In this document: positions 3,338-39,371 of the stretch, in pieces
How positions within the stretch are numbered: the first letter of the stretch is position 1
How the letters are laid out: every line of letters begins with the position of its first letter
Position numbers and translations under genes: made by a program
DNA from: Patescibacteria group bacterium
GTDB taxonomy: Bacteria > Patescibacteriota > Patescibacteriia > Buchananbacterales > UBA6539
Direction: 5' to 3'
Assembly: GCA_034003985.1 (NCBI GenBank)
Contig: JAVEXP010000001.1
Coordinates: 155,347-219,346 of the forward strand
DNA: 64,000 bases
Notes under the pieces: generated by a model
Databases searched by the model: none
Told to the model about the DNA's origin: nothing
Seen by the model: only the letters and a program-made list of their open reading frames with translations

Positions 3338-4351
3338 TTGTGGTATAATTCAAAAGAAATGACCACTAAAAAATTGCATCAATTCATTGAATATCTGAGT
3401 CAGCAAAATTTGGTTTGGGCGCCTCAGAAACAAAATGGCCAGCTGGTCATTTCTCAAGTCAGCAGTCCTGAAGAGGTCGTTTTAACTAATGAGTTGCCAT
3501 TGCATTCGTTTAAAAAAATATTGGTGCCGCCGCAGGAGGCGCTTTTTAGTTATCAAAGAGGCAGAATCAAGGCTAAAATCGAGTCTCCTTATCAGGTGAT
3601 TTTTGGTTTAACCGTGCCGGATTTGAAGGCCGTAATATATTTGGATCAGGTGTTTGCCAAGGATCCTTACTATCAGGCTCGGCGCAAAAAAACTTTAATC
3701 GTCGGTCATAGCTTGGTGCCGGAAGCGGATTATCAATTTTTCATTGAGAAGTTCAGTGAAGATATTTTAGAGCATTTGAAGTTTGATATTTTTTTGGCCA
3801 TTCAGAAAAACCAGAAAAATTTTATCGTTTATACCGGATCAGAAGACGGTCAGCGGATTTTGGATGATTTTGGCTATAAATTATACGAACACATTGAATA
3901 TGTCGGGCCAATCAAAGAAGAGGGTCCCGACAAACAGATGCTGGAGATTAGAAGAAAGTTTTATGATAATCCGAAAATTTGGCAGGATTTGGCCCAGCGC
4001 TGTATTGAGTGCGGAAAGTGCAGTCTGGTTTGCCCGACTTGTTTTTGTCATGACCTTATTGACCAACCGGAGCTGGGTGAGGGTAACGGCACCAGAAATC
4101 GGCAATGGACCGCTTGCTTTTACGCTAATTTTTCCGCCGTGGCCGGTCGTGAATTGGGTAGCGGCAAGCCAAAATTTTTAAATAATACGGAGCAACGGAT
4201 CAGGTTTTGGTATGAACATAAATTTGTCAGGTCGGTTGACGAATTTGGCATTTCTGGCTGTGTCGGCTGCGGGCGCTGTACCAAAGTCTGTCCGGTGGCA
4301 ATTGACATTAAAAAAACTTTACAAAAAATTTTAAAAGGTGAAATTGAATGA
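3338..4351 (+). CDS. [NiFe] hydrogenase group-3b-like beta subunit (sulfhydrogenase HydB-like), a 4Fe-4S dicluster protein.
   Basis: Two ferredoxin-type Cys motifs (CIECGKCSLVCPTC and CVGCGRCTKVCP). The stop overlaps the start of the gamma subunit (ATGA). Confidence 0.7.
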   Translation: MWYNSKEMTTKKLHQFIEYLSQQNLVWAPQKQNGQLVISQVSSPEEVVLTNELPLHSFKKILVPPQEALFSYQRGRIKAKIESPYQVIFGLTVPDLKAVIYLDQVFAKDPYYQARRKKTLIVGHSLVPEADYQFFIEKFSEDILEHLKFDIFLAIQKNQKNFIVYTGSEDGQRILDDFGYKLYEHIEYVGPIKEEGPDKQMLEIRRKFYDNPKIWQDLAQRCIECGKCSLVCPTCFCHDLIDQPELGEGNGTRNRQWTACFYANFSAVAGRELGSGKPKFLNNTEQRIRFWYEHKFVRSVDEFGISGCVGCGRCTKVCPVAIDIKKTLQKILKGEIE

Positions 4352-5166
4352 TTAATCCGTATTTGCCAAAATTTGTTAAGATTAAGGCAATCCGAACGGA
4401 AACTTCCGACACCAAACTTTTTACTTTTGAGTTTGTTGACGCCAAAGATCGTCGTAATTTTTCTTTTGAACACGGTCAATTTATGATGGCTGGTATGCTT
4501 GGTGAGGGCGAAGCGGCTTTTGATATTTGTTCTTCCCGGGCGGATTTACAAAAATTTGATTTGGCGATTCGCCAAGTCGGGAGATTGACTGCCAAATTGC
4601 ATCAGCTGAAAGTTGGAGATCAAATAACAATCCGTGGGCCGTTTGGCAATGGTTTGCCTTTAAATAACTTCAAGAATCGCGATTTATTATTAATTGGCGG
4701 CGGCTGTGGTTTTATCACCATGAGATCGTTTGCTTTGGATTACTTAGCGGGAAAATTGGATATTGGTAAATTGAATATATTTTACGGTTGCGCCAATGAA
4801 GAACGCTTGCTTTTTAAAAAAGAATATAAAAGCTGGCGCAAAAAGGTTGGCTTGGAAATCGCCTTGGACAAGCCGTCAAAAAATTGGCAAGGTAAAATGG
4901 GGACAATTACTTCTTTGTTTAATTCCAGCCAAGATTTTACTGGTGCCGTGGCATTGATGGTTGGACCGCCGGCGATGTATAAATTTGTAATTGAAGAATT
5001 GCAGGACAGAGGTATTAAAGACGAGGACATTTATTTGTCATTGGAGCGCCGAATGTATTGTGGTATTGGAGTCTGTCAGCACTGCGCCATTGGCCCGTAC
5101 TATGTTTGTAAAGACGGCCCGGTTTTTTCTTGGGCGCAGCTGCGGGGAATTCCTAACGCCATTTAG
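4348..5166 (+). CDS. Hydrogenase gamma subunit: a PyrK-like FAD/NAD(P)-binding oxidoreductase with a C-terminal 2Fe-2S site (sulfhydrogenase HydG-like).
   Basis: FNR-like fold motifs (GDQITIRGPFG and LIGGGCG). C-terminal C-x4-C-x2-C...C cluster motif (CGIGVCQHCAIGPYYVC). Confidence 0.75.
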   Translation: MINPYLPKFVKIKAIRTETSDTKLFTFEFVDAKDRRNFSFEHGQFMMAGMLGEGEAAFDICSSRADLQKFDLAIRQVGRLTAKLHQLKVGDQITIRGPFGNGLPLNNFKNRDLLLIGGGCGFITMRSFALDYLAGKLDIGKLNIFYGCANEERLLFKKEYKSWRKKVGLEIALDKPSKNWQGKMGTITSLFNSSQDFTGAVALMVGPPAMYKFVIEELQDRGIKDEDIYLSLERRMYCGIGVCQHCAIGPYYVCKDGPVFSWAQLRGIPNAI

Positions 5167-5169
5167 CCT

Positions 5170-5694
5170 ATGGTGGTTTCAACAAAACAGCCAAAAAAAG
5201 TAAAAGTCAACGATAAAATGCAACAGGGATATGTTTATGAATTAACCGTCAGTGAAGGTAAAAATTTTCATCCGGAATTTAAGCCGGAATTAACGCCTAA
5301 ACAGATGCTGGAATTGGGAGTATTTGGCGGTAAATATTTGAATGATTGCCAAAAAGAATTTCCCAAATCCTGGTTTAAGCGGGCGAAACTGGCCAAACGC
5401 CATAAAAATCTTTCCTTGAATTATTTTAAAGTTGATGCGTCATTGCCGTTGAAGGAGTGGCAGCGTAAAGGCTGGATTTATAAAGACGATCCCCGCGGGT
5501 GGTTTCAATGGTATTGCCGTTATTATCTGGGCAGAAGATTGGATCAAGAAGATTGGCGGCAAATTAAGCGCTGGAAAGCAATTAGGCGCCATATCGGGGC
5601 GATTAAGAATAATTGTTTTCAAGGCGATTTAAACTGTCGGGCGCGCCAACGCCAGGCATTATTGCACTGGGCGTATGACAGCCGAAGGATATAA
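5170..5694 (+). CDS. Conserved hypothetical basic protein with Trp/Arg-rich motifs (GWFQWYCRYYLGRR, RWKAIRRH).
   Basis: 174 aa ORF, tightly packed within the hydrogenase gene array. No recognisable catalytic motif. Confidence 0.45.
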   Translation: MVVSTKQPKKVKVNDKMQQGYVYELTVSEGKNFHPEFKPELTPKQMLELGVFGGKYLNDCQKEFPKSWFKRAKLAKRHKNLSLNYFKVDASLPLKEWQRKGWIYKDDPRGWFQWYCRYYLGRRLDQEDWRQIKRWKAIRRHIGAIKNNCFQGDLNCRARQRQALLHWAYDSRRI

Positions 5695-5710: not shown

Positions 5711-6103
5711 ATGAAACCTAAAATATTTATCATTTTCATTATGCCGGTTCTGACTTTGATTTTGGTTGGTTGCAGTTTTAAAGAAGAATACGCCATGCAA
5801 TATACAATTGTTGACCAGGCTGGTATTGAAACTAAAGTAACAGCGACTGATGATGGCGTTAAATTGGAGATTCCTTTTGCTGATTTTACTTGCGATATTA
5901 AAAGCGTTAAGGCAACGCTTGAAAGAAATGAAAGTATTTTTTCGGTTTTTATCCAGGGTAATGAAACCCCAGCGCGCTGTAGCCAAAAATTTAGCGCCGA
6001 TATTAATGGGGTTTCGCCCGGAAGTTATCAACTTAAAGTTTATTATCAGCGAGGGGAAGAAAAGCAAGTAGTTTTAGTTGAAGATTTTCAGGTAACCCAA
6101 TAA
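5711..6103 (+). CDS. Hypothetical lipoprotein.
   Basis: N-terminal signal peptide with a lipobox (LILVGC). Confidence 0.5.
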   Translation: MKPKIFIIFIMPVLTLILVGCSFKEEYAMQYTIVDQAGIETKVTATDDGVKLEIPFADFTCDIKSVKATLERNESIFSVFIQGNETPARCSQKFSADINGVSPGSYQLKVYYQRGEEKQVVLVEDFQVTQ

Positions 6104-6108
6104 TTAAA

Positions 6109-6312
6109 ATGTGCCTAACAGTACCGCTAGAGGTCACTAAAATCAAAAAACAGACAGCGGAATTGGCTGACGGGCGAGTGGTTAATATCAGTTTGGTCAA
6201 AGATGTTGAGGTTGGTGATTGGATTTTGGTTAATGCTAATTTGGCACTAGCCAAAATCACCGTGGAGGAAGCCAGGGAAATTATTGAGTTGTTAGCAATT
6301 AATAAAAAGTAA
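6109..6312 (+). CDS. hypC: Hydrogenase maturation factor HypC.
   Basis: 67 aa starting MCL, the essential Cys2. MCLTVPLEV...VGDWILVNANLAL...EEA matches HypC/HupF. Confidence 0.85.
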   Translation: MCLTVPLEVTKIKKQTAELADGRVVNISLVKDVEVGDWILVNANLALAKITVEEAREIIELLAINKK

Positions 6313-6315
6313 AAT

Positions 6316-7269
6316 ATGGAAACTAAAACAAAATTATTTAATTTTGAGCGACAGCGGATTGGAATAATATTGGTATTGCTAACCGCCTTAATTTCCGGTG
6401 TGGCTAATTTTTTCAATAAATTTGCCATGCAAATTCTAGCCAAAGATGCTTTTCAATATACTGCTTTGAAAAATATAGTAGTGGCCTTGGGTTTGAGTTT
6501 AATTTTATTGTCACCATTGGTGTTGGGGAAATTAAAAAAAATTCAAAAAACTGACTGGCTTAAATTAATCATCATTGGCTTAATTGGCGGCGGTATTCCG
6601 TTTTTGTTGTTTTTTAAAGGTTTGAGCTTAACCAGCGCGGTCAGCGCCAGTTTTATACACAAAACTTTATTTGCGTGGGTTGCTATTTTAGCCTGGCCAG
6701 TCTTGAAAGAAAAAATAGGTAAATGGCAATTTCTGGCTTTGGGGCTGCTGCTGATTGGCAATTTTGTTTTTTTGGATTTTCGAAATTTGCGCTGGGGAGT
6801 CGCTGAAACCATGATTTTAATTGCCACCATTATGTGGGCGATGGAAACAATCGTTGTTAAGGCTACTTTAGCAAAAGTCGAACCAATAGTGGCGGCCTGG
6901 GCGAGGATGTTTTTTGGCTCAATATTTTTGTTTGGCTGGTTAATAATGACTAATAATGTCACTGGTTTGGGACAATTAGATTTAGACCAATTAAGCTGGC
7001 TAGTGGGCGTAGGCGTGTTGCTGTTGGGCTATGTAATTACTTGGTATAGCGGATTGAAACGATTATCCGCCCTAACAACCGCCAGTATTTTGGTTTTAGC
7101 TTCACCAATTACGACATTATTAAATTCAATATTTGTCAGTCATAGTTTCTCGGTTCAGAATTTTTGGAGCAGTTTGATTATTGCCTTCGGTGTTTCGGGC
7201 TTCATCGCCTTGGGATTTAAACAAAACAGTAAATCCAGTTATCAAATATTAGAAAACAGTAAATCGTGA
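6316..7269 (+). CDS. EamA/DMT-superfamily membrane transporter.
   Basis: About 10 predicted transmembrane helices, with the two-repeat architecture typical of EamA. Confidence 0.6.
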   Translation: METKTKLFNFERQRIGIILVLLTALISGVANFFNKFAMQILAKDAFQYTALKNIVVALGLSLILLSPLVLGKLKKIQKTDWLKLIIIGLIGGGIPFLLFFKGLSLTSAVSASFIHKTLFAWVAILAWPVLKEKIGKWQFLALGLLLIGNFVFLDFRNLRWGVAETMILIATIMWAMETIVVKATLAKVEPIVAAWARMFFGSIFLFGWLIMTNNVTGLGQLDLDQLSWLVGVGVLLLGYVITWYSGLKRLSALTTASILVLASPITTLLNSIFVSHSFSVQNFWSSLIIAFGVSGFIALGFKQNSKSSYQILENSKS

Positions 7270-8081
7270 TGTTGTTAAACGACCAAAAATTGGCCGGGGC
7301 TTTACTGGCGGCGCGCTATGCCTTTATGCCTAACCGTTTGAAATATTGCGGACCGGATAATAATGCGGAATTGTTTGGTTATCTTGCCAATCAAACCGCT
7401 GATTTGGGTTTAAAGGAGATGCTCCAGGAATTTCAAACAATGTTTCCTTATTTAAAGTTGATTGCCGAAGCAAACCATATTGCCGATCCGTTCAACTATC
7501 GGGTGGTTGAAGCTTATTGGATTGGTAATGAACTATTGGAGAAAGTCAGGATACAAAATTTTTATCGTTATCTGGTTGATGGCCAGCAATTGAAGAAAAA
7601 GTTTAAATTAAGTTCTTTGGAAAAACTTTTTGGCAAGATTCCTTTGGGCGCCAAGCCGCACCACAGTTTTCATGTTTTAAATGTTCCGAAGCGAACCGGG
7701 TATTATCCGGTTGAACATACTTTAAAAACCATCAACGCTTGTATTATCACGCCGGCGAAAATCAAGCGCTTGAATCTTGAATCATGTTCGGCTGAAGGTC
7801 GGGTTAAAAAAATCAAAGAGCAACGAAATATTTTAAAAAAGATTATGGTTGAAGCCAGGCCATTGGTGGCTGAGGGTAATTGCCTGGAAATCGGTGAAGC
7901 CAGGGAGCAGGAAGTTTTTGTTGAATCTAATAATCAGGCCTTGGTCAAAGGATTTAAAGTTGGTGATGATGTGGCATTGCATTGGAATTGGGTTTGTGAT
8001 TTATTGACGCCAAGCCAGGCTGAAAATTTGTTGAAGTGGAATAATTATAATTTAAAATTGCTTAATCTGAATTATGCCTAA
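7266..8081 (+). CDS. Hypothetical protein, translationally coupled to the hydrogenase small subunit. Possibly a hydrogenase accessory protein.
   Basis: 271 aa. Its start overlaps the EamA stop and its end overlaps the start of the delta subunit. No known motif recognised. Confidence 0.45.
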   Translation: MMLLNDQKLAGALLAARYAFMPNRLKYCGPDNNAELFGYLANQTADLGLKEMLQEFQTMFPYLKLIAEANHIADPFNYRVVEAYWIGNELLEKVRIQNFYRYLVDGQQLKKKFKLSSLEKLFGKIPLGAKPHHSFHVLNVPKRTGYYPVEHTLKTINACIITPAKIKRLNLESCSAEGRVKKIKEQRNILKKIMVEARPLVAEGNCLEIGEAREQEVFVESNNQALVKGFKVGDDVALHWNWVCDLLTPSQAENLLKWNNYNLKLLNLNYA

Positions 8082-8898
8082 AAAAATTAAAAAACCAAGG
8101 GTGGCAATCGTTGGACTAACTTGTTGCGAGGGCTGTGAATTTGCAATTTTGGATTTGGGTCAGAGGTTTTTGGAACTAGCCAAGTATGTTGAGTTAGTCG
8201 AGTTTCGGATGATAAAAGACGATCCGCCAAAACCCGGACCTTATGATATCTGTTTTGTGGAAGGTTCGGCAGTAACCAAAAAGAATGTTGAGATTTTAAA
8301 AGAACTGCGGCGGGTGTCCAAAAAGCTGATTGTGCTAGGCAACTGCGCTCATACCGGCGGAATTCATCGGATGAAGAATTGGATTGGACGAGTTCAGGCA
8401 TTGGGGCAAGTATACGATAAGCCCCGGGGGATTGATAACCCGCCGATTGTACCGATTGCCGAAATTGTCAAAGTGGATTTTACCATCCCGGCTTGTCCGA
8501 TTAACGCCGAAGAATTTTTAATTATTGTAAAACAATTGTTGGCCGGGCGGGAGCCGTTTATTCCCCAAAATCCGGTTTGTTTCGAATGCCAGATTAACGG
8601 TTATGAGTGTTTGCTACAGCAAGGCGAACTTTGTTGCGGGCCAATCACTTTGGGCGGTTGCCAGGCTGTTTGTCTAAAAAGCAAACAGCCATGCTGGGGT
8701 TGCCGAGGTTTACTTGAAGAACCGGATGTTGATAAGTTTGTCCGTAATTGTTTTTTGACCGGTCATACTATTGAAGAAATTGAAAAAGTTTTGGAGGTGT
8801 TTGGAGTTAAAGATGACTGGATTGATCAGGCCAAACAAGAATGGCAATCGCTTCAAAAATCAAAAGCCTTAATTAAGATAACCGGGAAAGAAAAATAA
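8074..8898 (+). CDS. [NiFe] hydrogenase small subunit, group 3 (delta/HydD-like).
   Basis: Proximal FeS cluster motif VAIVGLTCCEGCEF, GNCAHTGG, and further C-rich motifs (CFECQINGYEC and CQAVC). Confidence 0.8.
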   Translation: MPKKIKKPRVAIVGLTCCEGCEFAILDLGQRFLELAKYVELVEFRMIKDDPPKPGPYDICFVEGSAVTKKNVEILKELRRVSKKLIVLGNCAHTGGIHRMKNWIGRVQALGQVYDKPRGIDNPPIVPIAEIVKVDFTIPACPINAEEFLIIVKQLLAGREPFIPQNPVCFECQINGYECLLQQGELCCGPITLGGCQAVCLKSKQPCWGCRGLLEEPDVDKFVRNCFLTGHTIEEIEKVLEVFGVKDDWIDQAKQEWQSLQKSKALIKITGKEK

Positions 8899-8906
8899 TT
8901 AAAATT

Positions 8907-9512
8907 ATGGAATGTTCAAAATGTAAAACTAACAATGATGACAAATCAAAGGTTTGTCGAATTTGCGGCGCTGATTTAACGATGGTGCCGGCCGCAATTG
9001 ATTTCAAGGCGGGAACTGAATCAAGCTCGGCGGCGGAAAAATATCAAGGGTTGGGTGGGTGGCTAATACTGGTAGGGCTAGGTTTAATTAGCGCTCCCTT
9101 AATGATTGGCTGGGCGTTGTATCAAGATTTTTTGCCGCTGGTTTTGGAGTCCCAGGTCTGGCAGACTTTAACTTCTCCAGGCAGTCTGATTTACAGTTCA
9201 TTGTGGAAGCCAACCTTAATGATGGAGGTAACCGTTAACATTATATTTTTTGTTTGGACAATATATCTGCTGGTTTTATTTTTCAGGAAGAGCGCGCATT
9301 TTCCTAAATTGTATATAATTTTTTTGGCGGTGAATTTATTATTTTTAATGATCGACGATATTTTACTTTTTCAGATCAGGCGCCAATTACCGATTCTGGG
9401 TCAGACTGTTGGTGAACAAAAATTTAGTTCATTGTCAGCGGTTTTGCCAACAGTTATTTGGATACCATATATGCTGAATTCCAAAAGAGTAAAACAAACT
9501 TTTGTTAATTAA
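8907..9512 (+). CDS. Membrane protein with an N-terminal zinc ribbon (CxxC...CxxC) and 4-5 transmembrane helices.
   Basis: MECSKCKT...VCRICGADL followed by hydrophobic helices. Sits between the small and large hydrogenase subunit genes. Confidence 0.5.
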   Translation: MECSKCKTNNDDKSKVCRICGADLTMVPAAIDFKAGTESSSAAEKYQGLGGWLILVGLGLISAPLMIGWALYQDFLPLVLESQVWQTLTSPGSLIYSSLWKPTLMMEVTVNIIFFVWTIYLLVLFFRKSAHFPKLYIIFLAVNLLFLMIDDILLFQIRRQLPILGQTVGEQKFSSLSAVLPTVIWIPYMLNSKRVKQTFVN

Positions 9513-9518
9513 TCATTT

Positions 9519-10805
9519 ATGAAGATTAGAATTGATCATTTGGAAAAAATGGAGGGTCACCTGGATTTTGTCGGTGATATTTTGGCTGGTGATGTCGCCA
9601 GCGCCAAAATAAAAACGACGGAAGGAATCAGGCTGATTGAGAGTATTTTGGTTGGTCGCAAGTATTATGACGCGCCAATCATTACGGCCAGAATTTGCGG
9701 GATTTGTCCGGTAGTTCATTCGTTGAATATGATTAAGACAGTCGAAAATGCTTTTGGCATTAAACCCAGTCAGCAGACTATTAAATTGCGGAAACTAATG
9801 GAGTTCTCACAAGTCATTCACAGCCATGCTTTACATTTGTATTTTTTGTCGATGCCGGATTTTTACGGAGTAAGAGATGATATTGACTTTATTAAACAAA
9901 ATCCAACCCAAGCCTCGGCGGCTATCAAAATTAGGGAATTTGCTTTGAAGATTTTGGAGGTGGTAGCCGGTCGGGCTATTCATCCAATTGCCTGCGAAGT
10001 CGGCGGCTTTAAAATTTTGCCCAGCCAGGAACAACTTAAAGAATTGTTGAGGAATTATAAAGAAACAATGGTCGCCGCGATGGAATTGATGGTGTTTGCG
10101 GCCAGATTGCCCTTGCCGCAGTTTGAACGCCGGATGGAATTTGCCAGTTTGTATTCGCCGGATGAATATGCGATTTATGACGGTCGGATAAAATTTTTGG
10201 ACGGCAAGATTATTAAGTCCAGTAAGTATGCCAAGGTAATAGATGAATATCAGTTGCTGGCGTCAGCAGCGAAGCGAGCAAATTATCAAGGTAAAAGCTA
10301 TATGGTAGGCGCTTTGGCCAGGCTTAATATTAATCATGACAAGTTGAGCAAGGAAGCCGCCGCCGTAGTTAAAGATTTAAAATTGAAATTTCCAATTTAT
10401 AATACCTTTGCCAATGTTTTGGCCCAAGCGATTGAAGTGGTTCATGCTATGCAAGAAGCCGGTAATTTACTGAGTGATTTGGCCGATAATTTGAAATTTG
10501 AAGAAAGCCGGGGCCATAATTTGGCTTTGATTGCCGATGCTAATCCCCAAGGTAGAGTTACGGTTGGCTATTCGGTAATGGAAGCGCCGCGGGGGATATT
10601 ATATGACATGGTAGAAATAAATGCCGATGGAGTAATCACTAGATCGGATATCATTACGCCGACCGTTCAATATTTAAACAATATCGAGGAGGATTTAAAA
10701 GTTTATTTGCCCAATTTAAAACAGTTATCAGACCGCCAGCGGCGGCAAAAAATTAAGACTTTAATCAGAGCTTACGATCCTTGTATTTCGTGTGCTACCC
10801 ATTAA
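9519..10805 (+). CDS. [NiFe] hydrogenase large subunit, group 3. It ends exactly at the DPCxxCxxH motif with no C-terminal extension.
   Basis: N-terminal L1 motif RICGICPVVHSL. C-terminal L2 motif DPCISCATH is immediately followed by a stop. Confidence 0.9.
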   Translation: MKIRIDHLEKMEGHLDFVGDILAGDVASAKIKTTEGIRLIESILVGRKYYDAPIITARICGICPVVHSLNMIKTVENAFGIKPSQQTIKLRKLMEFSQVIHSHALHLYFLSMPDFYGVRDDIDFIKQNPTQASAAIKIREFALKILEVVAGRAIHPIACEVGGFKILPSQEQLKELLRNYKETMVAAMELMVFAARLPLPQFERRMEFASLYSPDEYAIYDGRIKFLDGKIIKSSKYAKVIDEYQLLASAAKRANYQGKSYMVGALARLNINHDKLSKEAAAVVKDLKLKFPIYNTFANVLAQAIEVVHAMQEAGNLLSDLADNLKFEESRGHNLALIADANPQGRVTVGYSVMEAPRGILYDMVEINADGVITRSDIITPTVQYLNNIEEDLKVYLPNLKQLSDRQRRQKIKTLIRAYDPCISCATH

Positions 10806-12039
10806 TATGATTGATAATCTATTCTTTTTGATTATTTTAATTCTAGTTTCCGCTTTTTTCTCCGCTTCGGAAATCGCGATTTTTTCTTTGTCGCAAGCTA
10901 AAATAAAATCCTTAGAGAAAAAGAAAGTCCGTAACGCCAAGCAACTGGCGGCTTTGCGCGCTAAACCTCAGCGGTTATTAATTAATATTTTGATTGGCAA
11001 TAATTTGGTTAATATCGGTGCCTCGTCGATGGCGGCCGTGATCGCCTGGCAAATTTTTGGCAATATCGGTCCGGCGATTGCCACTGCTGTTTTAACGATT
11101 TTAATTTTGGTTTTTGGTGAAATTGGTCCCAAGACTTTGGCTTCGGCCAATGCCGAAAGGTTTTCTTTGGCAATCGCGCCGATTTTAACTTTGATTGATA
11201 TTATTTTTCGCCCGGTTTCCATTTGGTTTGAGTTTTTTAACAAACTGGCAATTAAATATCTGGCCGGCGGCCGGGCTCGACCGTCAATGACCGAAGAGGA
11301 ATTGACTGCTTTGGCCGAAATCGGCGCGGAAGAAGGAGTGGTTGAACCAAAAGAAAAAGAAATGATTAAACGGATTTTGGAATTCAATGATATTAATGCT
11401 GAGGATGTAATGAGGGTTAGGAGTGATATTTTTGCCTTGCCTCAGAATTTAACACTGAGACAGGCTTTGTCTGAAATTAATGAAGCTCATTATTCCCGCG
11501 TGCCAATTTTTGAGAGAACTATCGACAATATTACGGGGGTGATTTACCTGCCAGACATTCTTCGAGAATTGACCGCCGGTAATGATGATTTGCCAATTTT
11601 GAAGATTTCTCGCAAACCTTATTTTATTCCATTACAAAGGAAAATCGATGACATTTTTAAGGATTTTCAGCGCCGCCACAATCATATTGCAATCGTTCTG
11701 GACGGCCAGGGCAATACCGCCGGACTGGTGACTTTGGAGGATTTGTTAGAAGAGATTGTCGGGGAAATTATGGATGAGTCTGATGTGGACGAATCATTGA
11801 TAAAGCGAATTGACAAGAAAGCAATTTTGGTTGATGCTCAAACAGAAATTAGAAATATTAATAATTTTTTCAATATCAATATCCCCGGCCAGCCTCATGA
11901 CTTTGTGGCCGAAGCTTTTCTGGAAAAATTTGGACGAATTCCCAAACCGGGGGACGAGGCTTTGTTTGAAAATTTTAAAATGGTAATTGAAAAAGCGACT
12001 AAGAAAAAAATTGAAAAGATAAGAATAATTAAATTTTAA
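10792..12039 (+). CDS. HlyC/CorC (CNNM) family transporter-associated protein: DUF21 membrane domain, CBS pair and CorC_HlyC domain.
   Basis: 4-TM N-terminus with a conserved GExxPK motif, CBS domains, and a C-terminal transporter-associated domain. Confidence 0.8.
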   Translation: MLPINMIDNLFFLIILILVSAFFSASEIAIFSLSQAKIKSLEKKKVRNAKQLAALRAKPQRLLINILIGNNLVNIGASSMAAVIAWQIFGNIGPAIATAVLTILILVFGEIGPKTLASANAERFSLAIAPILTLIDIIFRPVSIWFEFFNKLAIKYLAGGRARPSMTEEELTALAEIGAEEGVVEPKEKEMIKRILEFNDINAEDVMRVRSDIFALPQNLTLRQALSEINEAHYSRVPIFERTIDNITGVIYLPDILRELTAGNDDLPILKISRKPYFIPLQRKIDDIFKDFQRRHNHIAIVLDGQGNTAGLVTLEDLLEEIVGEIMDESDVDESLIKRIDKKAILVDAQTEIRNINNFFNINIPGQPHDFVAEAFLEKFGRIPKPGDEALFENFKMVIEKATKKKIEKIRIIKF

Positions 12040-12040
12040 T

Positions 12041-12301
12041 ATGCACGATTTGCACGCGGCTGATCAAATTCTAAAATTGGTTTTAGCTCAAGCCAATGAT
12101 CACGGATTATTGAGGGTGAAAAGTATTGTTGTTGAACTTGGCAGTATGATTGAACATGGTGAAGAGATAAATCCGGACAATCTAACTTTTAATCTTAAAT
12201 TGTTGGCCAAAAATACCCCAGCCGAAGCCATGGCAGTAACAATCAACAAAGTTCAAGGGGGTAATTGGAAGCTGGTGGAAATTGAAGGAGACAATAATTG
12301 A
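12041..12301 (+). CDS. hypA: HypA-like hydrogenase nickel-insertion protein, truncated. The N-terminal Ni-binding domain (MHD...) is present but the C-terminal CxxC/CxxC zinc finger is absent.
   Basis: MHDLHAADQILKLVLAQANDHGLLRVKSIVVELGSMIEHGEEINPDNLTFNLKLLAKNTPAEAMAVTI aligns with the HypA N-terminal domain. The protein is 86 aa with no cysteines. Confidence 0.6.
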   Translation: MHDLHAADQILKLVLAQANDHGLLRVKSIVVELGSMIEHGEEINPDNLTFNLKLLAKNTPAEAMAVTINKVQGGNWKLVEIEGDNN

Positions 12302-13305
12302 TAATTAAGATGGAAGAAGAGAAAATAGAACAACCAGATCAAACCGCTGATTTGTCTAACCAGTCCGACTATTGGGATGATTATACCAGGCAAATGCGAT
12401 CTCATAATATTGGGGTGGTTGAAAGAGATGGTGGTTTTTATGTTGATACGCCCGAAGGTGAGGCGGCAGTCAGGCTGCCCGTCAGTCATGAGGCAATGCT
12501 GGATCAGGCCGAACGGGTCGGTCAAAGGGAGAGTTTAGTTAAAGCCCGTTTGACTAGCGAACAAGCTCCGCTGGCAGCTTGGGTTCAGGAAGGACGAAAG
12601 CAGATGGAACAAAATCAGTCGGCTTTTGCTGAGGCAAAAAACGCCGAGGATATTATGAGGGAATTAACCAGGCAAGGTAATTTATTGGTAGCTGAAAATA
12701 TTGTCGGTAAACTTAGGGGTTTTCCTGATCAGGCGAAAAGGTTTGTGATCCCGTCGAATGTTATTTCCGAAGTTGCTTCGGCTTTTGAGAAGTTGGGATA
12801 TTATGTTAAGAGGGTGTCGGGCAAAGGCATTTTTGTCCAAGGCGATTTTGCCGCTTACGCGTTTTTAAACGCTGACAAAGTTGAACAAGGAAATTTAGCA
12901 GAAGAAATGATTGATGATGATGGTGACGATGCGGGTGATGGGTCGTCGGGGCGGGACGGAAAGAAAGGAAAACCAACACAAGCGATGAAAGGAAAGTTGG
13001 GACCGAAATCATTTGGGCAGGGAGGTAAAGTTGGTGGTTTGGCAAAAGGTACTGGTAAACATGCCAACGGCCCAGTATCTTTAAGGAAACCGGGGGAGGC
13101 TGATGTTAATATTGGAAATGAGCCATTGGTAATTACCGAAACGGTGGTACCGATGACGGCGCTGTCTTCGCAGCCAAATATTACTTCCCATACCAAAACG
13201 GCAACGAGTCCAGAAGTCGCCGCTTCTCAACCAAGTGTGTCAAGTGGCACTAATTCGGCCGGCGGCGGAATGCCAACTGTCACTCCCGGTCCGGGCGCGG
13301 GCTAA
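12298..13305 (+). CDS. Hypothetical protein with an acidic patch (DDDGDDAGDG) and a Gly/Lys-rich, low-complexity C-terminal half.
   Basis: 335 aa ORF with no recognisable domain. Confidence 0.4.
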   Translation: MIIKMEEEKIEQPDQTADLSNQSDYWDDYTRQMRSHNIGVVERDGGFYVDTPEGEAAVRLPVSHEAMLDQAERVGQRESLVKARLTSEQAPLAAWVQEGRKQMEQNQSAFAEAKNAEDIMRELTRQGNLLVAENIVGKLRGFPDQAKRFVIPSNVISEVASAFEKLGYYVKRVSGKGIFVQGDFAAYAFLNADKVEQGNLAEEMIDDDGDDAGDGSSGRDGKKGKPTQAMKGKLGPKSFGQGGKVGGLAKGTGKHANGPVSLRKPGEADVNIGNEPLVITETVVPMTALSSQPNITSHTKTATSPEVAASQPSVSSGTNSAGGGMPTVTPGPGAG

Positions 13306-38138: not shown

Positions 38139-39371
38139 TCAGAAGTAGAGAGTGAAGCCGGCTGAAAATACATCGACTTCAGTCTCATACCGTCCTGGAG
38201 ACAGGTTGTTGAACGATTGTCCAATTTCCTGTTTGACCCAAGCATGGAGGTATGCTAGGTCAAATGACCAGTTATCCTGATGGTAACCCAGGCCTAGTCC
38301 GACGCAGAATCCCTGGCCGTCAGGGATCACCGGATTGGTGGTGTCGTTGGGTACGGCTGGGCCGAGCCAGCCAACCCCCATCCGACTAGTCAAATGCTCG
38401 TTGAGTTGGCGCTCTATCCCCAGATGAGCGCTGAAAGATTTGTCCCAGTCCAGGCGCTGACGGATGGTTGGCAGCTTTCCGAAATCGAAGTCGATTCGGT
38501 CAGTCTGGCTATAGTCAAACCAGTTGACATCGAAAGCCACCAAATATTCGTTGTTGGGCTGCCAGGCAAATCCCAAACCCAATCGTGCCGGAAAGGTGAC
38601 ATCGGCGTCGAAGCCGTCGCGCCCCAGATTCAGTCCTGCCAACGAGATGTCGGTGTGACCTTTGAGGGCAATTTTCATCCGTGAGGAATAGCTCAGGGCC
38701 AATGCCAGGCGTTCATCGGGTTGCCAACGAATACCCAGACGATAACCCCAACCAAATCCGTCGCCTTCAGTCACTAAATCGGTGAGATCCAGTCTGACGC
38801 CGCCAATCTGGTGCAGGGGTGTGTGGTAGAGCAATTGGCCATAGCCAAGGTCTAATCCCACCCCGATACTCAGAGTGTCGGTGAGTTCATAGCTGAATCC
38901 ACCGGTGAGGTTGACTACGGCCAGCAGACTTTGGCGGTAGTTAAGACCCGGGTAGCGGTTGTTCGGGTATTTGACGCCCAAGCCATAGGGAGCGTATATT
39001 CCCGCTCCCAGTACCAGCCTGTCGGACAGGCGGGTGGCACCGGCTACTAGCGGCATAGTGAATAGCTGATCTTCCGACTGTTCTTCGAATCCGCCCCAGC
39101 TATCCGGCAGACGGTATTCAAAGTCGGGTGAAATGAAGTCGCCCGAAATTTGCAGGAAAGAGCCATCAACCTGGCTTAATCCCGCAATGTTGTGGTACAG
39201 TGCCGAGCCGTCGGAAGCTACGGCATTGTGGGCACCAGACATGCCCAGAGCTCTGGGGGTAAGGCTGGCGCCGGGACGGATAACACCACCACCAAACGCC
39301 GTCTGACCACAAAGTACTACCACCGCTAAGCAAGCCGCCCACTTAATATTCATCAGGTTCCTCCTTATCAT
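38139..39371 (-). CDS. FadL/OmpP1/TodX-family outer-membrane beta-barrel, a hydrophobic-compound transport protein. GC-rich.
   Basis: Signal peptide. N-terminal hatch motif ...ASDGSALYHNIAGL matches the FadL NPA(G)L region. Alternating amphipathic strands. The C-terminus ends ...GFTLYF (terminal Phe). About 56% GC. Confidence 0.7.
   Translation of the reverse strand: MIRRNLMNIKWAACLAVVVLCGQTAFGGGVIRPGASLTPRALGMSGAHNAVASDGSALYHNIAGLSQVDGSFLQISGDFISPDFEYRLPDSWGGFEEQSEDQLFTMPLVAGATRLSDRLVLGAGIYAPYGLGVKYPNNRYPGLNYRQSLLAVVNLTGGFSYELTDTLSIGVGLDLGYGQLLYHTPLHQIGGVRLDLTDLVTEGDGFGWGYRLGIRWQPDERLALALSYSSRMKIALKGHTDISLAGLNLGRDGFDADVTFPARLGLGFAWQPNNEYLVAFDVNWFDYSQTDRIDFDFGKLPTIRQRLDWDKSFSAHLGIERQLNEHLTSRMGVGWLGPAVPNDTTNPVIPDGQGFCVGLGLGYHQDNWSFDLAYLHAWVKQEIGQSFNNLSPGRYETEVDVFSAGFTLYF

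Follow-up and report, generated by a model that had tools for sequence, protein, structure and literature searches.

DUF6390 proteins, a putative HypC-derived family encoded beside transporter and NiFe hydrogenase genes and a candidate for the metal supply or maturation of these enzymes

The maturation of NiFe hydrogenases involves six Hyp proteins, known mainly from studies of E. coli and a small number of other model organisms. NikR and InrS are nickel metalloregulators, in which a DNA-binding domain is combined with a metal site rich in Cys and His, and SlyD is the H. pylori metallochaperone that acts on nickel uptake. The control of nickel uptake by a metallochaperone of this organism is described in one study (PMC7840056). 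The HypC-type chaperones carry an essential Cys, which is the N-terminal residue in the characterised proteins, and this residue, Cys2, is proposed to coordinate Fe(CN)2CO together with Cys41 of HypD (PMC8692609). HypC His51 adjoins Cys2 and promotes the binding to HypD (PMC9002611).

The window, by which we mean the whole stretch of 64,000 nucleotides that was analysed, encodes a protein of the DUF6390 family on its forward strand (positions 7266..8081, 271 codons from a GTG at 7266). The open reading frame begins with GTG-ATG, and the ATG at 7269 is the likelier start, giving a 270-aa product that is 100% identical to the deposited protein P0001, which is named “DUF6390 family protein [Patescibacteria group bacterium].” The A of this ATG is also the last letter of the stop codon TGA of the preceding EamA gene at 7267-7269 (TGATG), and the TAA at 8079-8081 ends the DUF6390 frame 8 nt into the gene of the hydrogenase small subunit, which starts with the ATG at 8074. 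Both overlaps had been pointed out in an initial annotation of this DNA and are present. The same annotation recognised no domain in the protein, which has to be corrected, since the Pfam domain DUF6390 (Pfam ID PF19927) matches it over almost the full length with 183.3 bits against a cutoff of 25 and an E value of 7e-54, aligning residues 9-268 to profile positions 3-239 of 244. There is no NCBIfam model for the protein.

The search for homologues yielded 3228 sequences with an E value of at most 1e-3 in a database clustered at 90% and 1500 clusters at 50% identity, 388 of which have an E value of at most 1e-30, and the frame at 7266..8081 is therefore a genuine gene and not a chance ORF. All 120 homologues listed carry PF19927, and at least 524 matches are confirmed among the species-representative genomes. 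The best-matching genomes belong to the Patescibacteria (Buchananbacteria, Uhrbacteria, Kerfeldbacteria, Parcubacteria, and others) and to the Chloroflexota (Dehalococcoidia, Chloroflexia, Anaerolineales, Thermoflexus, and Caldilineaceae), together with a few Bacillota, Armatimonadota, and Desulfatiglandales.

In the window, the gene is part of a hydrogenase operon. The forward strand encodes the beta subunit (3338-4351, Pfam Fer4_22) and the gamma subunit (4348-5166, with Pfam matches to FAD, NAD, and DHODB Fe-S domains) of a 3b-type enzyme, followed by a stand-alone HypC of 67 aa that starts with MC (6109..6312, Pfam HupF_HypC with an E value of 3.2e-16, and TIGR00074) and the EamA/DMT-family permease (6316..7269, Pfam EamA with an E value of 4.9e-31), which is the translationally coupled upstream partner of DUF6390. 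Downstream on the same strand are the NiFe hydrogenase small (delta) subunit (8074..8898, Pfam Oxidored_q6, NCBIfam ShyD/HydD-like), the group-3b-like large (alpha) subunit (9519..10805, identified from its translation, Pfam NiFeSe_Hases, and ShyA/HydA-like NCBIfam matches), and a short HypA-like protein of 86 aa that starts with MHD (12041..12301, Pfam HypA with an E value of 3.9e-8, covering profile positions 1-69 of 112). Between these genes lie two ORFs without Pfam matches (5170-5694 and 5711-6103), a zinc-ribbon/DUF2569 membrane protein (8907-9512), and a CNNM/CorC transporter (10792-12039). The short HypA-like protein contains no Cys and thus lacks the zinc-finger Cys pairs; a similar gene is found in 10 related loci. 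The large subunit has both Cys pairs, in the motifs RICGICPVVH and DPCISCATH, and its final residue is a His with no C-terminal extension, so no maturation protease should be needed. The best NCBIfam matches of the enzyme, ShyA/HydA and ShyD/HydD, all score under the equivalog cutoffs, and we describe it as group-3b-like.

The DUF6390 protein is composed of an N-terminal all-helical domain (residues 1-158, positions 7266..7739) and a C-terminal HypC-like OB-fold domain with an additional helix (residues 159-271, positions 7740..8078), both on the forward strand. The HypC models PF01455 and TIGR00074 do not match the protein at an E value of 0.01 or below, and the matches to HypC sequences of PDB entries are weak (E value of 0.24). 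The profile and fold comparisons that the initial annotation had proposed did bring out a relation to HypC, with a profile-profile hhalign E value of 1.8e-6 and a similar fold, in which the OB-fold beta-barrel is followed by a C-terminal helix as in HypC. Profile comparisons with E. coli HypA, HypB, HypD, HypE, HypF, and HycI gave nothing, and HypC alone matches. The family thus combines a HypC-derived domain with a novel helical domain.

Two residues of the helical domain, Cys28 (codon 7347-7349) and His133 (7662-7664), and two of the HypC-like domain, Cys159 (7740-7742) and His239 (7980-7982), are 100% conserved in 313 non-identical full-length members, a set made up of the representatives of the 50% clusters, the proteins of the 80 species loci described below, and the fusion proteins, all aligned to the family profile. 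Conservation in the same set reaches 99 to 100% for Gly29, Gly87, and Trp240, 94% for His136, and 89% for both His132 and Cys244 (codon 7995-7997); His132, His133, and His136 are located within the motif GAKPHHSFHV of the window protein. Cys159 aligns with HypC Cys2, and His239 aligns with HypC His51. Cys159 is internal; in all 40 aligned sequences it follows Ala, Glu, Asp, Ser, or similar residues, and a start codon never stands directly before it. A hidden internal start that would give a free HypC-like protein was considered and rejected, because this alignment shows no Met, Val, or Leu at the position preceding Cys159. In the structure prediction, the helical domain has a pLDDT of 80 when modelled with the HypC-like domain versus 61 without it, which is consistent with an inter-domain interface; the model around Cys28 has a pLDDT below 50. 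From the conservation pattern, we infer that Cys28, His133, Cys159, and His239 form one inter-domain metal site of the Cys2His2 type, which is the simplest reading of a retained HypC Cys and His combined with a Cys and a His from the helical domain.

Compared to the HypC, HybG, and HupF proteins (PF01455 and TIGR00074), the DUF6390 proteins have their Cys in an internal position, after a helical domain of 158 residues, and are three to four times larger, and a stand-alone HypC is often encoded alongside. Fusions to HTH domains and to a transporter occur among the DUF6390 proteins.

For the gene neighbourhoods, we collected 80 loci, each from a different species and with flanks of up to 8 kb, and searched their ORFs with the window proteins, cluster representatives, and Pfam. 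This comparison, which had been suggested with the initial annotation, found structural or maturation genes of NiFe hydrogenases in 73 of the 80 loci and in 48 of the 49 loci whose two flanks both reach 5 kb or more, and it supports the annotation's proposal of a candidate hydrogenase accessory factor. The large subunit is present in 54 loci, the small subunit in 52, a HycI-type protease in 47, HypC in 44, HypA in 21 (and in 10 more with the short form), and HypB in 7. The hydrogenases, which come from Patescibacteria, Chloroflexota, and other groups, are of several kinds. Beside the four-subunit 3b type found in the window (“hyd1”), there is a type encoded on the opposite strand with a truncated small subunit, a Pyr_redox_2 flavoprotein, and a ferredoxin (“hyd2”), an HdrA/MvhD-linked hydrogenase in one Dehalococcoidales locus, and, in further loci, enzymes with an NiFe_hyd_SSU_C domain (group 1/2-like). 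By its conserved co-location across distant taxa, DUF6390 falls into the operational class of NiFe hydrogenase accessory genes.

The DUF6390 gene is also almost always coupled to a transporter gene. An EamA permease adjoins it in 60 of the 80 loci, where the EamA stop is found at a median of about 23 nt 5' of the codon for the conserved Ala16 (50 loci), and therefore the two genes overlap or abut as in the window. A Kerfeldbacteria genome encodes a natural EamA-linker-DUF6390 fusion of 563 aa (P0121), which is called in two assemblies, one from NCBI and one from Logan. Loci without EamA have other transporters in its stead. At one of them (L069), a Fur-ZnuA-ATPase-ABC-3 permease operon ends with an overlapping DUF6390 gene; this type is known as a classical metal-cation importer, and its usual cargo is Zn, Mn, or Fe rather than Ni. 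Inspection of the ZnuA-like binding protein of this locus revealed no His-rich loop. Eight Chloroflexota loci have a family-5 (Nik/Opp-type) binding protein 3' of DUF6390, one locus (L054) has an MFS gene two genes upstream with a PIG-L gene in between, and one (L082) includes a gene for CbiM (Ni/Co ECF) within the DUF6390 operon. EamA/DMT and MFS proteins are not known to import nickel. The residues conserved in the DUF6390-linked EamA clade (K52, H115, K116, E132, E177, and R197) are unlike a classical metal site, so that the cargo may instead be an organic ligand or a chelated metal.

An N-terminal HTH domain is found on five of the best 150 of the 1500 DUF6390 cluster representatives, and these domains come from four HTH families, namely, XRE (P0139 and P0166), PadR (P0150), GntR (P0179), and ArsR (P0220). 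The fusion proteins keep the motifs YCGP, AYWIGN, PHHSFxV, CRIxWG, and HWxWxC, with the exceptions of P0220, which lacks the last Cys, and P0166, which is truncated. Their genes are located directly 5' of transporter genes, often overlapping them, with an SBP_bac_1-type ABC system following P0179, family-5 ABC systems following P0150 and P0139, and an MFS transporter following P0220. For P0139, P0179, and P0220, genes for NiFe hydrogenase, HycI, HypA, HypC, or the NicO nickel/cobalt transporter are found within a few kilobases; the short contigs of P0150 (about 8 kb) contain no recognisable hydrogenase, hyp, or NicO genes. Repeated independent fusion to unrelated DNA-binding domains is a usual signature of a ligand- or metal-sensing module. 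The genes of NikR and InrS likewise lie beside nickel or metal transporter genes that serve hydrogenase, but their folds are unrelated to DUF6390, most members of which have no DNA-binding domain and whose metal site is a predicted one. The window protein has no HTH domain in the Pfam search.

We propose that DUF6390 acts as a cytoplasmic metal-binding receiver or sensor, which couples a dedicated transporter to NiFe hydrogenase maturation, because the HypC residues are kept and others added, the genes are wired to transporters, several of them from metal-importing families, they occur almost exclusively at hydrogenase loci, and the fusions are of the sensor type; we give this reading a probability of about 50%. 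The HypC-derived OB-fold domain would pack against the helical domain, so that Cys28 and His133 from one side and Cys159 and His239 from the other may form the Cys2His2 site, backed by His132, His136, and Cys244. The site would receive a metal ion imported by the co-translated transporter, which is EamA in the window. Our first guess for the metal is nickel, to which both the chemistry of Cys and His and the neighbouring genes for Nik-type ABC systems, NicO, CbiM, HypA, and HypB point; iron comes second, suggested by the descent from HypC and by Znu/Tro-type, Nramp, and Fbp-like genes nearby. The stand-alone protein may pass the metal on, or report its availability, to HypC, the short HypA, or the apo-large subunit, docking on the maturation line via its HypC-like surface. 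The HTH-fused forms would be the sensor half of one-component regulators of transporter genes in other lineages; the stand-alone form cannot regulate transcription, leaving metal hand-over or protein-protein control of the permease as its likely modes of action. The H. pylori metallochaperone that acts on nickel uptake (PMC7840056) offers a precedent for the concept, namely, a cytoplasmic metal protein that links an importer to the maturation of a nickel enzyme. DUF6390 and SlyD belong to unrelated families, and the resemblance would be a functional analogy only. Metal binding, the identity of the metal, and the direction of transfer are what we infer from the sequences, and the Cys2His2 site could also hold a purely structural zinc.

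Taken alone, the homology to HypC would place the protein on the Fe(CN)2CO side of maturation and not in the supply of metal ions. DUF6390 may accordingly be a specialised HypC paralogue that carries Fe(CN)2CO or holds the apo-large subunit open, as HypC, HybG, and HupF do, with an N-terminal domain that only adds client specificity and an incidental adjacency to transporters, a reading that we consider somewhat unlikely. Besides the homology itself, the retained Fe-binding Cys and its neighbouring His fit such a role, and in about 36 of the 80 loci, mainly those with the “hyd2” arrangement of Parcubacteria, a separate HypC is missing from the retrieved DNA, leaving DUF6390 as the sole HypC-like protein there. 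It is also consistent with this role that the position of His51 is not a His in 20 of the 29 stand-alone HypCs that neighbour DUF6390, among them the window HypC, which has an Asn. However, Cys159 is internal with no start codon before it, whereas the Cys of characterised HypC proteins is N-terminal (PMC8692609), and a HypC paralogue would leave the two further invariant ligand-type residues of the helical domain, the five HTH fusions, the EamA fusion, and the Fur-ZnuABC-type operon without explanation. The frequent lack of the His that mediates HypD binding in the neighbouring HypCs (PMC9002611) also fits the idea that DUF6390 replaces the HypD scaffold, so that HypC and DUF6390, with Cys28 in the place of HypD Cys41, would assemble or receive Fe(CN)2CO where HypD is absent; such organisms perhaps lack HypE and HypF as well, and the EamA permease might import a precursor. 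The resemblance to the HypC-HypD complex lies in one Cys per module (Cys159 and Cys28, echoing Cys2 and Cys41; PMC8692609) with a His nearby, and in the DUF6390 gene often directly following hypC. HypC abuts DUF6390 in 17 loci without an upstream EamA, and in Chloroflexia, the gene order protease-hypA-hypB-hypC-DUF6390 places it in the canonical slot of hypD. Neither the 1.06 Mb of flanks from the 80 species nor the 64-kb window gave a tblastn match to E. coli HypD, HypE, or HypF, although HypA, HypB, HypC, and HycI were recovered, and the HypD motifs GPGCPVC and GFETT are absent from the ORFs of the 80 related loci and from the six-frame translation of the window. On the other hand, DUF6390 has no sequence or fold similarity to HypD (hhalign probability of 0.1% against E. 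coli HypD), its three conserved Cys are too few for the [4Fe-4S] cluster of HypD, the absence of hypDEF applies to the flanks and the window rather than to whole genomes, and HTH and transporter fusions suit a cofactor-assembly scaffold poorly, making this replacement improbable. We are similarly doubtful about a broader scenario, in which HypDEF would be missing genome-wide in Patescibacteria and perhaps in other carriers, and HypC, EamA, and DUF6390 would form a minimal route for loading the active site. In such a route, DUF6390 would be the scaffold of HypC and partner in one, with Cys159 and Cys28 acting as HypC Cys2 and HypD Cys41, and the permease would bring in a metal or the precursor of a ligand, perhaps taken from the host.

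The tightest and most general partner of DUF6390 is the transporter gene and not the hydrogenase. This, together with the EamA-DUF6390 fusion and the HTH fusions upstream of transporter operons, would also be expected of a regulatory or structural accessory protein of the transporter, such as a cytoplasmic subunit for gating or substrate sensing, perhaps with a structural zinc and with no direct role in hydrogenase maturation; the hydrogenase genes would then be neighbours merely by virtue of their need for the transported substrate. Against such a role, which we judge to be unlikely, the HypC-derived domain retains the functional Cys and His, 48 of the 49 well-flanked loci are hydrogenase loci, and some members have HypC or hyp neighbours with no adjacent transporter detected, such as the HypC-DUF6390-small-large arrangement of L055, and L009/L010. 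If DUF6390 were instead a further structural component of the 3b enzyme, produced in fixed proportion to the small subunit, this would account for the 8 nt that its gene shares with the start of the small-subunit gene in the window and for the 11 related loci in which this start overlaps or abuts the DUF6390 stop (-8 to +1 nt), an arrangement that is absent elsewhere. Yet the gene mostly stands apart from the structural genes, on the opposite strand, or with hyp genes only, it accompanies at least four types of hydrogenase, and HTH-fused forms exist; a structural subunit is very improbable, and we rejected it on the variable gene order.

DUF6390 is a widespread candidate for the metal supply or maturation of hydrogenases in CPR bacteria and in many members of the Chloroflexota. 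Should the proposed binding of nickel or iron by a receiver or sensor hold, the family would be a new hydrogenase accessory protein, a function could be assigned to both DUF6390 and its paired DMT-type permease, and a handle would be available for the heterologous production of CPR-type 3b enzymes. The family also makes it testable whether reduced genomes dispense with HypDEF.

DUF6390 is thus far a large, catalogued family without a published function, whose link to hydrogenase had been noted in passing only. No paper names “DUF6390” in a full-text literature search, and the literature on hydrogenase maturation in CPR/Patescibacteria offers only a brief remark on “fam002” by Jaffe et al. 2020 (PMC7304191), a group that probably corresponds to DUF6390 or to HypC and DUF6390 taken together. 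That paper does not describe the domains or conserved residues of the family, its link to transporters, or its fusions, and the literature search found no account of the two-domain architecture, of the invariant quartet mapped onto HypC Cys2 and His51, of the systematic coupling to transporters including the natural fusion, or of the HTH fusions. One member, P0017, is named “hydrogenase maturation factor” in a JGI record.

The stand-alone HypC gene that adjoins the DUF6390 region in the window (6109-6312, +) encodes a protein with an asparagine at the position of the usually conserved His51, reading LVNANLA rather than the normal LVHVGFA. The substitution recurs in related loci, as the 29 HypC proteins neighbouring DUF6390 (loci L001-L077) carry asparagine at this position in 12 cases, histidine in 9, glutamine in 4, tyrosine in 2, and serine and aspartate in one each. 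In Escherichia coli, His51 of HypC favours binding to HypD (PMC9002611).

A second uncharacterised partner, a conserved protein of about 400 residues, is found beside DUF6390 or HypC in Chloroflexota and in the loci where the DUF6390 homologue carries an N-terminal PadR DNA-binding domain (L047, 8788-10014; L050, 3911-5137; L078, 6451-7671; L088, 2466-3650; positions are those of each locus). The only match for this protein is DUF4159, which stays below the threshold.

The EamA permease paired with DUF6390 (6316-7269, +) forms a clade with 54 orthologues, in which the distinctive conserved charged or polar residues are K52, N53, H115, K116, E132, E177, K182, and R197, and in which cysteine is nearly absent. 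This residue set bears little resemblance to a typical metal-ion site, and the permease may therefore transport a chelate or an anion.

The hydrogenase large subunit (9519-10805, +) ends with the histidine of the DPCxxCxxH motif as its last residue and thus has no C-terminal extension, and the hydrogenase operon of the window has no gene for a maturation protease. By contrast, in 30 loci of the "hyd2" type, an arrangement of Parcubacteria, a divergent 128-residue HycI-like gene lies immediately 3' of DUF6390.

Several further genes belong to the operon, and their slots are partly filled by other families in related DUF6390-bearing loci. Between the small- and large-subunit genes lies a gene for a membrane protein with a zinc ribbon and a DUF2569 domain (8907-9512, +); this slot differs in relatives, with, for example, Ldh_2 in L083 and Flavin_Reduct 5' of the small subunit in L082. 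A CNNM/CBS/CorC-type transporter gene (10792-12039, +), also present in L003 and L006, starts 14 nt ahead of the large-subunit stop, and its family suggests a possible role in metal-ion transport. Two ORFs of 174 (5170-5694, +) and 130 residues (5711-6103, +) do not yield matches in Pfam or NCBIfam searches. The shorter one has a cysteine within its hydrophobic N-terminus, which we read as lipoprotein-like. In L082, the slot of both ORFs is taken by CbiM, a component of Ni/Co ECF transporters, and an unknown 132-residue ORF.

The gene after that of the CNNM/CBS/CorC-type transporter encodes a HypA-like protein of only 86 residues starting with MHD (12041-12301, +), which covers positions 1-69 of the 112 positions of the Pfam HypA profile. 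The protein contains no cysteine and therefore lacks the zinc-finger half of HypA. In 10 related loci, as well as in L082 and L083, a comparable short gene lies 3' of the large-subunit gene. The stop of the short HypA gene in the window overlaps by 4 nt with a 335-residue ORF (12298-13305, +), which has no match in the Pfam search and whose C-terminal half is of low complexity and rich in Gly, Lys, and Asp.

Patescibacteria are usually regarded as having no outer membrane. Elsewhere in the window, this contig attributed to Patescibacteria carries a gene for a FadL/TodX-type outer-membrane beta-barrel protein (38139-39371, -; Pfam Toluene_X, E value of 7e-44).
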